64,000 nucleotides of DNA from Bdellovibrionota bacterium FG-1. Its GTDB lineage: Bacteria > Bdellovibrionota > UBA1018. A program made the translations under genes and the position numbers. The notes beneath the pieces were generated by a model. The model was not told the origin of the DNA. It ran no database searches and was given only the letters and a program-made list of their open reading frames with translations. The DNA is taken from the NCBI GenBank assembly GCA_051382295.1, contig JBBCAW010000041.1, forward strand, positions 1 through 64,000, in the 5' to 3' direction. Shown here in pieces: positions 11,472-42,573 of the stretch (position 1 is its first letter; each line of letters opens with the position of its first letter).

Positions 11472-11824
11472 AGGTACGAGGCGTGGGGCTTTTCTTCTCC
11501 TCGTAATTTCGCCATGGCGGCCTTTAGCTGTCGTTCCATGGCTAGAAAAGAGTCGCGGATCGCCACATAGATGTCTTCGTGGGCGTGGAAGTTGGTTCTA
11601 TCTTGTTGACCCACGGCAAGTTCCATCCCAGGCAGGGTGAGGTCAATGGTGACATTGTACAGCCGGCCTTGATGGTGATGTCGATGAGGCTCATGAATGG
11701 TCACTCGACAGGATATGATGCGATTCGAAAACCGGGCAAGTTTATCCACCCGATGTCGAACAGCGGTGGCTACGGCATCTGAATGGGGGAAGTCTTTGAA
11801 TGTGATGATCAGTGGGAGTTCCAT
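11468..11824 (-). CDS. HPF/RaiA-family ribosome-associated protein
   Basis: ITFKDFPHSDA…CRVTI…HEDIYVAIRDSF, S30AE-like. Confidence 0.85.
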   Translation of the reverse strand: MELPLIITFKDFPHSDAVATAVRHRVDKLARFSNRIISCRVTIHEPHRHHHQGRLYNVTIDLTLPGMELAVGQQDRTNFHAHEDIYVAIRDSFLAMERQLKAAMAKLRGEEKPHASYL

Positions 11825-39640: not shown

Positions 39641-42211
39641 ATGACCCAAAAACGGCGCTTACTCGAACGTCTTCCCGAACACCCAGCCGACTCCTCCCTA
39701 TTGATGGATCATTTTTTGGGCTATGTTCAGGAACAAGGGTTGGCGCTCTATCCTGCGCAAGAAGAAGCCATTCTCGAGATCTATAGCGGCAAGAATGTGA
39801 TTCTCAATACTCCGACCGGCTCAGGTAAGTCGTTGGTGGCTGCTGCTCTTCATTTTCTTTCGATCGGCTCAGGGCGCAGGTCCTACTATACTTGCCCCAT
39901 TAAGGCTCTGGTTAACGAGAAGTTTTTATCGCTTTGTCGTGATTTTGGACCGGAGCAAATTGGAATGATCACTGGTGATGCGACCGTTAATTCGAACGCA
40001 CCCGTGATCTGTTGTACTGCTGAGATCTTGAGCAACATGGCCCTTCGGGATGGGGCGAAAGCTCGCGTAGATGACGTGATCATGGATGAGTTTCATTATT
40101 ATTCGGATCGCGACCGTGGGGTGGCGTGGCAAGTGCCTCTTCTCACTCTTCCTCAGTCGCGTTTTTTACTGATGTCGGCGACTTTAGGGGATACTGATTT
40201 TTTTGAAAAAGAACTCACGCGTCTCAATGGGCGCGAAACCGTGACGGTCCGGTCCACTACTCGGCCAGTTCCGCTCGAGTTTAGGTATTCAGAAGACCCT
40301 CTTCACGATGCGATGAGTAAACTCATCAGGGAAGGACGGGCTCCGATCTACCTCGTTCATTTTTCGCAACGTGAAGCCGCTGAAGCCGCGCAAAACATTC
40401 TTTCGACGGATTTTTGCACGAAGGAGCAAAAGAAGCTCATCGCGGAGGCGCTGGAAGCCGAGGGTGCACGTTTTTCGAGTCCGTATGGCAAAGACATCCA
40501 GCGTCTTTTGCGCCATGGGGTGGGCTTGCATCATGCGGGGCTGCTTCCTAAATATCGGATTTTGGTCGAAAAATTGGCCCAAAAGGGACTCCTCAAAATC
40601 ATTTGCGGCACGGACACGTTAGGGGTGGGCGTCAACGTACCGATCCGGACCGTTCTTTTTACCAAGCTTTGCAAGTTTGATGGCGAAAAATCGACCATTC
40701 TGAGTATTCGTGATTTTCAACAAATTTCTGGACGTGCTGGGCGTAAGGGATTTGATGAGCAGGGAACCGTGGTAGCCCAAGCGCCAGAGCATGTGATTGA
40801 AAATCTTAGAAACGAACAAAAAGCTGCGGGTGACGCCAAAAAGATTAAAAAGCTCGTTAAAAGAAAACCTCCCGAAAAGGGGTATGTGGCCTGGAATAAA
40901 GAAACCTTTGAAAAGCTTGTCAACGGAAATCCAGAGGCGCTCCAATCACGTTTTCAGGTCAATCATGGGATGTTACTGAATGTTTTGAGTCGCCCCGACG
41001 AAGACGGCTGTCGCGCCATGCAGCGATTGATTCGTGCTAGTCACGAAAATCCCCATTCGCGCAAACAGCATGGAAAGAAGGCTTTTGCCCTGTTTAGATC
41101 ATTAGTGGATCGCAAAATTATCGAATTCAACCCGCTCCGCGTGAATGTCGATTTGCAGGAGGATTTTTCACTCAACCATACTTTGGCGCTCTATCTTCTG
41201 GATACCCTGAAACTCCTGGACCCTCAAATTCCGGACTATGCGCTGGATCTGCTGACTTTGGTTGAATCGATTCTCGAAAACCCGGAAATGGTTTTGCGGA
41301 AGCAGCTGGATCGGGTCAAGTCCGAAAAGATGGCGGAACTCAAAGCTCAAGGAATGGAGTTTGATGATCGTATCGCGGAACTAGAAAAGTTAGAATACCC
41401 TAAACCCAACCGCGAAATGATTTACGATACGTTTAATGAGTTTTCGCGAATTCACCCTTGGGTGGGACAAGAAAATATTCGTCCAAAATCGATTGCCCGT
41501 GAAATGTTTGAAAACTTTCAGTCGTTTTCTGAGTATATTCGAGACTACGAACTTCAGCGAGTCGAAGGGCAGCTTCTTCGATATCTTTCAGAAGTGTATA
41601 AAGTCTTGGTTCAGACGGTTCCAGAATCGGCTAAGGACGCTGCCGCTCATGGGGAAGTGAGTCTGATTGAAGAATTCTTCGGAACGATGATTCGTTCGAT
41701 TGATTCGAGTCTTTTGGATGAGTGGGAACGTATGCGAAACCCCGCCTGGGTTTCACCGACGGCCGAGGTCAAAGATCAGACCGCCGCCGAGGCGAGTGAC
41801 ATTACTCGCAATGCCAAAGCCTTTACCGTTCAAGTTCGAAACGCGGTATTTCGGCTGGTTCGAGCCTTGGCGAGCGGGGAGTTCGAAGAAGCGTTAGAGC
41901 TGATTGAGCCCGAGGGTGACGGCCCTGATGGCCAAGGGGTGCGCTGGACGAAGGATGGTTTTACCGCGATTGCAGAGCAGTATAGTGTCGATCATCAGCG
42001 CGTATGTACAGACCCCAAGGCCCGCCTGCCTCAGTATACACAAATCACTAAAACTACGGGAGCCTGGAAAGTCTCTCAGGTTTTGGTGGATCCGGAAGGG
42101 CACAATGATTGGGTGATGTCGATTACTGTCGATTTGGCGCGTTCTCGTGAGGCCTTTAGGCCTGTGCTGAGGCTGGAGCAGATTGGGGCGCTGGCGCTGG
42201 GCGCCCAATAA
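39641..42211 (+). CDS. Ski2/HelY-like DEAD/DEAH RNA helicase with DUF3516
   Basis: [48 protein letters not shown]. Confidence 0.93.
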
Positions 42212-42250
42212 AAAAAAAGGACCCGGGAGATCAACCCCGGGTCCGTAAAA
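42211..42250. terminator. Strong terminator, U-tract on the minus strand
   Basis: A-tract then GGACCCGGG-AGATCAAC-CCCGGGTCC (42219-42244). Confidence 0.85.
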
Positions 42251-42540
42251 AATCTCTGACACCTTTCTTATGTTGCGAGCGGGACTCAATGCCCGTCTCG
42301 AAACACCCTTCCGTGCAAGCTTGCCCAGCTACCGGCGGGGTTATGTCTCTCATTAAACCTGTTTCTTATCTGTCGCGTTCCCCTCTGGCCTATAGAGAAG
42401 ACCCGACAGTCCGTGAGCTCCGCAGACGCCTGTGCGGCTCCGCTCACGCTAACTCGCCTTTGGGGGACCGTGGTTATGATACTCATCCAGATGAACGACT
42501 TGCTTTATGCGGTTTGGCATTCAATCGCCTCCCTTATATA
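42212..42540 (-). ncRNA. Candidate structured small RNA (~330 nt) of unknown family, with a 23-aa sORF (42449-42520)
   Basis: Sigma-70-like promoter upstream, three long hairpins, terminator with U-tract, no credible long CDS. Confidence 0.6.
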
Positions 42541-42544
42541 AACA

Positions 42545-42573
42545 AGACTAAATTAGTATGTTAATTAGAGCAA
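42545..42573 (-). promoter_or_regulatory. Sigma-70-like promoter for the candidate RNA
   Basis: Minus strand TTGCTC (42573-42568)-N17-TAGTCT (42550-42545) in AT-rich DNA. Confidence 0.55.

Follow-up and report, generated by a model that had tools for sequence, protein, structure and literature searches.

Genomic context and anatomy of the locus

The window analysed here, a stretch of 64,000 nucleotides from Bdellovibrionota bacterium FG-1, carries on its minus strand a structured element located between a DAGK-like gene (43648-42608, minus strand), which gave a weak Pfam match below cut-off, and the convergent gene of a DEAD/DUF3516 helicase (39641-42211, plus strand; Pfam), both of which are neighbours outside the element. 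It begins with a predicted sigma70-like promoter (42545-42573) composed of a -35 TTGCTC (42573-42568), a 17-nt spacer and a -10 TAGTCT (42550-42545), with the -10 lying partly inside a palindromic box of 13 bp (42558-42546). A Shine-Dalgarno (SD) site (42528-42533) precedes a small open reading frame (sORF) of 23 aa (42449-42520) with the C-terminus HGPPKAS-stop, in which the Gly-Pro-Pro-Lys codons (42458-42469) form a putative pause or arrest site whose Lys codon starts 12 nt before hairpin P1. P1 (42412-42448) consists of a 7-bp P1a, an internal loop and a 4-bp P1b, and its loop 1 contains the palindrome GGCGUC (42425-42430), a putative kissing loop whose self-pairing includes two G-U wobbles; hairpin P2 (42370-42409) presents the palindrome GGCC (42387-42390) in loop 2 as a putative second kissing loop. 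An A/U-rich linker (42341-42369) leads into a variable 3' domain (42271-42340), for which MFE folds of the window copy predict two hairpins, including the third hairpin at 42305-42271, and the unit ends in an intrinsic terminator (42210-42244) formed by a 10-bp stem (42244-42219) and a U-tract. Promoter, ribosome binding site, 23-aa ORF, three hairpins and terminator had all been proposed in an earlier sequence-only reading and were found in place on the minus strand.

The folding energy of the whole region is modestly above chance (z -2.0, with 6 of 100 shuffles as good); the whole-region fold being only moderate, the support for hairpins 1 and 2 comes from covariation and not from folding energy. 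By eye the sequence-only reading had matched no tmRNA, 6S, SRP, RNase P or riboswitch, and the covariance search against Rfam 15, which covered these classes as well as CsrB/Rsm, agrees with it: nothing reached the gathering score in the window (best E 0.31, confined to the terminator), and 20 homolog loci gave no match, riboswitches included. ARAGORN likewise reported no match in the window.

Distribution of the RNA family

When 61 related genomes were searched at the DNA level, matches were confined to positions 42490-42363, in about 12 genomes and at a second site in the genome of FG-1 itself. Pattern scanning of genome contigs yielded 32 loci, 20 of which, with Bdellovibrionota titles (Oligoflexia, Bacteriovoracaceae UBA1018), show the full anatomy; the other 12, from other phyla, possess neither the sORF nor P2 and were treated as chance, and the covariance model found no match in four of those other-phylum genomes. 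One of these phyla, with 151 genomes examined, gave a single match (E 0.045), which had neither GPP nor the loops and was also attributed to chance. Metagenomes contributed 16 further loci, some of them duplicates, and viral contigs none in the pattern scan. Two covariance models were employed, R1 comprising the ORF end and the hairpins and R2 the hairpins only. R1 matched 55 of 75 family genomes. In the order, represented by 116 genomes with the titles UBA1018, Bdellovibrionota, R2 matched 78, including 48 of the 67 well-assembled ones, at one to four copies each; phylum genomes outside the order gave no match with either model (R2 0/124, R1 0/128). The main set used below consists of 94 of the 95 R1-aligned copies, L160 (24.5 bits, without the features) having been dropped, and the held-out set of 22 of the 24 new R2 matches after removal of L198 and L199 (26 bits, without the features).

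On this sequence comparison the locus belongs to an undescribed RNA family confined to one uncultured order of Bdellovibrio-related bacteria, within which the copy of the window represents a paralog that has relocated. The comparison with relatives bears out the first two hairpins, which are conserved with covariation, but not the third, which, like the AUAAG repeats, is a trait of the window copy and no family feature. At L136 (G074:C91) and L134 (G097:C38) the element occurs in tandem, with copies spaced by about 450 nt and 4 kb, respectively. One copy from a bin of family f1 (L159, G064:C98:934-1055) is almost identical to the family-f10 copy L121, reflecting either a mis-binned contig or a transfer.

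The sequence-only reading had proposed a regulatory RNA, either a protein sponge, for instance of the CsrA/Hfq-binding kind, or a dual-function sRNA. The repeats do exist in the window, where ATAAG-purine occurs three times against 0.17 expected from dinucleotide shuffles and ACGGA three times against 0.44 (15 of 2000 shuffles as high), both enrichments referring to motifs chosen after inspection. However, AUAAG is missing from 63 of 94 homologs, and GGA itself is not enriched either in the window (8 against 8.7 expected) or in the family (7.4 per homolog copy against 7.8 in shuffles), which makes the sponge proposal improbable even with csrA encoded in the genome and ACGGA present in triplicate. 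Type I toxin-antitoxin systems combine a short ORF with a structured UTR, in several copies per genome, and the family recalls them in each of these respects. The peptides, however, are hydrophilic (median GRAVY -0.81), and none of the 94 contains a hydrophobic 15-mer above 1.6; antisense promoter-like sites number 8 against 11.8 expected in a pattern scan, and blastn found no match in phage and plasmid collections. Either a sponge or a type I toxin mRNA with an antisense antitoxin is therefore highly improbable.

Transcription unit and neighbouring genes

Of 89 homologs, 56 have a promoter-like site (TTG-N3-N16-18-TA-N3-T) ahead of them, where 7 would be expected, and a terminator-like site, called by a loose rule, lies 3' of 89 of 94; the promoter of the window copy did not pass a strict sigma70 scan. 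Judging from these sites, the RNA is probably transcribed from the predicted promoter, with an estimated length of 265-435 nt (10th-90th percentile) across the family. The distance to the first terminator call ranges from 21 to 400 nt, the 3' domain being highly variable.

The 13-bp palindromic box overlapping the -10 recurs in 18 of 89 homolog promoters at no more than two mismatches, against about one expected. Boxes of this type (GACT-R-WWW-Y-AGTC) were also noticed in intergenic DNA rich in A/T, ahead of several genes for secreted proteins, the sites besides that of the window (42546-42558) being G000:C23:62898, C38:60647, C13:65576, C122:8768 and C5:24623. The box resembles an IscR/Rrf2 site, and control by a regulator of this type may be considered, four Rrf2 genes being present in the genome. 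N-termini of the genes behind the best 26 of 41 box sites revealed no recognizable Fe-S gene, and the box may instead represent back-to-back promoter hexamers.

The genes around the element differ among loci. Homologs of smc are the commonest neighbour and lie downstream in 29 loci, a gene for a PEP-utilizing enzyme, probably ppdK, lies upstream in 11 loci, the paralog of the own genome among them, and in 32 of 90 loci, the window among them, the downstream gene runs towards the element. The helicase gene does sit convergent to the element, as had been noted, but it is not a recurring neighbour, and a functional tie to it was rejected in view of the varying neighbourhood. Since smc has a promoter-like site of its own behind the terminator (20 of 27 cases against 2.9 expected), and since neighbours vary or converge and a terminator follows the element, the RNA stands alone and, on the evidence of these loci, is independent of its neighbours. 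The same observations bear on a reading of the element as a cis-acting arrest-peptide leader or attenuator of the SecM/CruR type, ancestrally controlling smc, as the GPP end motif of the ORF and the 29 smc loci might suggest. The terminator, the convergent genes and the promoter-like site of smc speak against such a leader, as does the lack of a conserved ORF in frames 0, +1 and -1 after the stop codon, an SD-led ORF ahead of the terminator being present in no more than 7 of 94 homologs. We consider this reading barely credible for the family, and for the window copy it is already largely refuted. The candidate second ORF of the window, 40 codons long (42233-42353, minus strand), with the SD-like ATAAGAAACAGG ahead of it and running into the terminator, was rejected as unconserved.

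The small open reading frame and its peptide

In all but one of the 94 homologs the sORF encodes 17-36 aa; an SD match of at least 4 nt precedes it in 92 of 94, and the peptides have the consensus (P[YF])xxRxxxE[FV][HP][ED]TGPP[RK]. Conservation at the C-terminus amounts to 93/94 for Gly, 94/94 for Pro-Pro and 88/94 for the Arg or Lys that follows. Directly before GPP, 63% of the copies have Thr and 11% have His, Arg being rare; the HGPP of the window fits the pattern [R/H]-[A/G]-P-P, and an aromatic residue is found about 12 codons upstream of the GPP end. Third codon positions are free to vary and dN/dS in 37 disjoint pairs amounts to 0.25 for codons -10..+3 and to 0.17 for codons -5..+3, demonstrating at the sequence level that the sORF is under purifying selection. 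The second Pro codon is CCA or CCG in 92 of 94 copies compared with 42% of genomic PP pairs, the Gly wobble being saturated, and such a bias would be expected if slippage during a long dwell of the ribosome were avoided. GPP is the most depleted XPP in the long ORFs of the own genome, at 0.54 of expected (simple ORF calls, shadow frames included).

Pfam, NCBIfam and PDB contain no match to the peptide. A peptide profile compared with 1.84 billion proteins gave 23 matches, 22 of which are stand-alone family peptides of 29-67 aa, unnamed or hypothetical; that the peptide is a piece of a larger protein was dismissed, the sole such match being a choanoflagellate repeat that we regard as chance. 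The stand-alone matches, the low dN/dS, conserved residues that extend up to 13 codons upstream of Gly and the coexistence of paralog subfamilies with distinct peptides would all be compatible with a small-protein gene whose product acts in trans through its C-terminal ETGPP[R/K], on a protein or in the ribosome tunnel, with a dimerizing 3' part that merely stabilizes or localizes the mRNA. We hold this to be unlikely, because the N-terminal two thirds of the peptide are weakly conserved (37% column identity), the length of the tail varies with the nucleotide spacing held constant, as described below, and two covarying palindromes exceed what stability would need.

Register between the end of the reading frame and the first hairpin

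In each of the 94 copies, the start of P1 lies exactly 21 nt downstream of the Gly codon's first base. The stop codon, in contrast, shifts between +4 (9 copies), +5 (10), +6 (74) and +9 (1), and the upstream length of the ORF is also variable; that 21 nt are kept despite the shifting stop indicates that the spacing tracks the RNA and not the peptide tail. In the copies with a shifted stop the gap from stop to P1 comprises only 3-9 non-coding nt, which makes the absence of indels there moderate evidence. As R1 includes the region of the ORF end, the register was retested with R2, which contains the hairpins only, and GPP was found at exactly 21 nt in 16 of the 22 held-out copies. The remaining six lack Pro-Pro; their ORF has the same length and the final Arg stands in unchanged register, so Pro-Pro is not obligatory. 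These six copies (L177, L179, L180, L182, L183 and L189, all of family f10) encode peptides ending in EDPR, EDQR, DPQR, RFRR or RHRR and not in GPPR, and for three of them the same genome also encodes a paralog with GPPR. What is nearly invariant in the aligned sequences is that a basic codon stands 12 nt ahead of P1; the codon after it, sense or stop, is free.

According to PMC7282821, A-site binding is hindered by dnaX and HIV hairpins whose distance from the first nucleotide in the P site is 11-12 nt, and an Arg/Lys codon 12 nt before P1 places this hairpin at the distance at which hairpins block ribosomes. HGPP and RGPP are among the arrest motifs described in PMC12992588, and a RAP/P register of arrest peptides is described in PMC10951233. 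A ribosome would, from these likenesses, probably pause at GPP[R/K]. The loss of Pro-Pro in 6 of 22 held-out copies counts against this pausing, and against arrest of the RAPP type counts that Thr usually precedes GPP in place of the Arg on which that arrest depends; moreover, EF-P is encoded in the genome, so that a plain PP pause could be relieved. Programmed frameshifting or read-through was discarded, as frames 0, +1 and -1 close at scattered distances and the length of P1 varies modulo 3.

Conserved hairpins and self-complementary loops

Across 95 sequences, cells of P1a are paired in 98.9% and those of P1b in 92.6%, with two-sided changes in 6 of 7 and 4 of 4 pairs, respectively, and P2 shows two-sided changes in all of its 12 pairs. 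Taken together, P1 and P2 have two-sided changes in 22 of 23 pairs and 91% of cells able to pair against 33-47% in slid controls; this covariation alignment was fitted to the model, and a plain MAFFT alignment of 23 sequences gave the same picture. P2 is almost constant in length (39-41 nt in 89 of 94), the gap between P1 and P2 is about 2 nt, and the 30 nt after P2 have a median A+U content of 70%.

In loop 1, the hexamer lying one base upstream of the P1b 3' strand is complementary to itself in 76 of 94 copies (65 of them without wobble), with 15 different hexamers, as compared with neighbouring offsets 0-9, a column-shuffle null of 28±3 and a genomic background of 5%; the 18 exceptions are mostly odd-length palindromes with a central mismatch, and all 22 held-out copies are self-complementary. 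On a tree built without it, this hexamer changed at least 40 times (minimum 22; the alignment is short, with many weak forks), and its two central bases covary even though they are unable to pair within a hairpin. At the apex of P2 all 94 copies carry a tetramer that is a Watson-Crick palindrome (GGCC 71, GAUC 13, CGCG 10), and 21 of 22 held-out ones carry GGCC; the predicted kiss of GAUC is weak (-1.8 kcal/mol). A cis partner for loop 1 was not found above chance level (37 against 39.6 expected), nor was pairing between loops 1 and 2. Self-complementary loops that change in a compensatory way without a partner in cis argue for intermolecular kissing, and we infer that each loop kisses its own counterpart in a second RNA copy. 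Both palindromes stand on the 3' side of their loops, a placement that is typical of the pairing sequence in kissing loops. P1 and P2 would stack coaxially, with their loops facing opposite ways.

Up to 77 nt are accommodated in loop 1, a size that speaks against docking of this loop into the A site. Two copies (L137 and L157) bear a 77-nt structured insertion in loop 1, with the palindrome kept at the 3' end of the insertion. Paralogs within one genome mostly share or cross-pair their loop keys, and a short-peptide subfamily with a different key is present alongside in four genomes.

The 3' domain of 58 of 94 homologs contains a GNRA-capped hairpin, against 20 in shuffles, and the window copy is without it. 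Such a hairpin, together with the A-rich single-stranded linker, would suit an RNA that is itself the effector, as a protein scaffold, a merRNA-like ligand sponge or an sRNA acting through its 3' domain, with translation of the sORF only setting folding or decay and sensing the status of EF-P or Pro-tRNA. It would agree with this that terminating ribosomes must melt P1a in most copies and that Pro-Pro is dispensable where ORF and hairpins persist. The 3' domain, however, varies widely between 21 and 400 nt and is degenerate in the window copy, the Rfam search revealed no riboswitch among the homolog loci, and the ribosome does not enter P1 at all where the stop lies at +4, all of which leaves an RNA effector a rather doubtful option. 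A hammerhead suspected in the 3' part of two homologs was rejected by eye, stem II failing to form.

Proposed mode of action

That a translated, self-pairing structured RNA exists is, in our estimation, very likely, and the comparison of the family supports the sequence-only reading in having proposed a free-standing, unannotated and structured RNA with a real sORF, that is, of dual nature. That reading included neither the GPP[R/K] with which the ORF ends, at a constant distance from hairpin 1, nor the two self-complementary loops, which are the traits on which the following proposal is built. We suggest, with a probability of about 0.5, that this free-standing RNA of some 330-370 nt acts via the ribosome it carries and via pairing with its own copies. 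The strong ribosome binding site would load a ribosome onto the short ORF, and the nascent ...GPP would slow it; with the Arg/Lys codon in the P site, P1 would arrive at the mRNA entry channel and the ribosome would be held, in a state of paused elongation or, where the next codon is a stop, of paused termination. The palindromic loops of P1 and P2 would each kiss the identical loop of another molecule to give dimers, and end-to-end stacking of P1 and P2 across the gap of about 2 nt would make the loops face away from each other and render chains or rings more likely than a closed dimer. The likely use of such an RNA would be to sequester, pair or protect ribosomes, or its assembly or stability might report the status of translation; this physiological role is a guess. 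Against a self-pairing RNA that holds ribosomes count the 18 of 94 imperfect loop-1 hexamers, the weak GAUC kiss, the insertions in loop 1 and the 19 of 67 well-assembled genomes in which the element was not matched.

A more far-reaching and less probable version would be RNA-encoded ribosome storage, in which one ribosome is trapped per mini-ORF and the loops polymerize the loaded RNAs into dimers, rings or filaments; just as speculatively, this RNA would replace the protein role of HPF/RMF. If storage were true, paralogs with different loop keys would build separate assemblies. The dimerization domain of long HPF was absent from all 116 genomes of the order and present in 1 of 151 phylum-wide, and RMF was not found in the own genome, which has two short HPF/S30AE genes, one of them in the window (11504-11809, minus strand). 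The argument that the RNA stands in for HPF was nevertheless set aside, as the absence of long HPF is phylum-wide and hence does not discriminate. Ribosome dimers mediated by RNA have a precedent in expansion segments of mammalian rRNA (PMC13092973).

Relation to known systems

RAPP-like arrest leaders (SecM, ApdA/ApdP, CruR; PMC12992588, PMC10951233) resemble the family in the xGPP end of the ORF, in HGPP and RGPP as arrest-supporting motifs and in the aromatic residue about 12 codons upstream. They differ in that the family has Thr in place of Arg before GP, no secretion signal and no controlled downstream gene, and a hairpin in fixed register combined with kissing loops is not described for them in excerpts of these two articles. 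Pausing stem-loops such as the frameshift hairpins of dnaX and HIV-1 share a hairpin 12 nt from the P-site codon (excerpts of PMC7282821), whereas the family has neither a slippery site nor a conserved shifted frame and its hairpin loop is palindromic. Palindromic kissing-loop signals (HIV-1 DIS, oskar 3' UTR, hatchet ribozyme; excerpts of PMC7357161) have in common with the family apical palindromes of 6 or 4 nt with compensatory variants, and a self-complementary loop with compensatory change and without a cis partner, as in DIS-type signals, was found here; in contrast to these, the present case concerns a bacterial chromosomal RNA with two adjacent loops directly behind a translated ORF.

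Self-assembling ncRNAs (OLE, ARRPOF, ROOL, GOLLD, manA, EGFOA) share the predicted homo-oligomerization by kissing loops; the family has no Rfam similarity to OLE/ROOL-type RNAs, for which a conserved translated ORF in register is not reported in the excerpts of PMC12990946 and bioRxiv 10.64898/2026.07.01.735769. The merRNA of Bdellovibrio bacteriovorus, as far as described in part of PMC3627812, is likewise a free-standing RNA of 300-450 nt from the same phylum, but it contains a c-di-GMP riboswitch and no conserved ORF, and the models of the family match nothing outside their own order. Our literature search found no description of the RNA, a listing in a supplement remaining possible, and the available main text of a motif survey of 50 genomes (PMC11109978) mentions neither Bdellovibrio nor palindromes. 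The arrest peptide, the pausing hairpin and the DIS-type loop each have a precedent, and their union in one free-standing bacterial RNA fits no known kind that we found.

The family offers comparative evidence for two intermolecular kissing loops within a core of 80 nt, tied to the position of a ribosome. Natural self-assembling RNAs are rare, and bacterial ones come mostly from cryo-EM of orphan motifs without a function. The family provides a direct and cheap test of whether an mRNA-like RNA parks and arrays ribosomes, and even if the parking of ribosomes fails, a new structured RNA and a conserved small peptide family across a bacterial order remain. Its natural loop keys, some 20 in number, could be useful to RNA nanotechnology. 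Elsewhere in the window, the plus strand encodes between 43669 and 50078 a protein of 1112 aa without a Pfam match and, behind it, a subtilase of 1024 aa.
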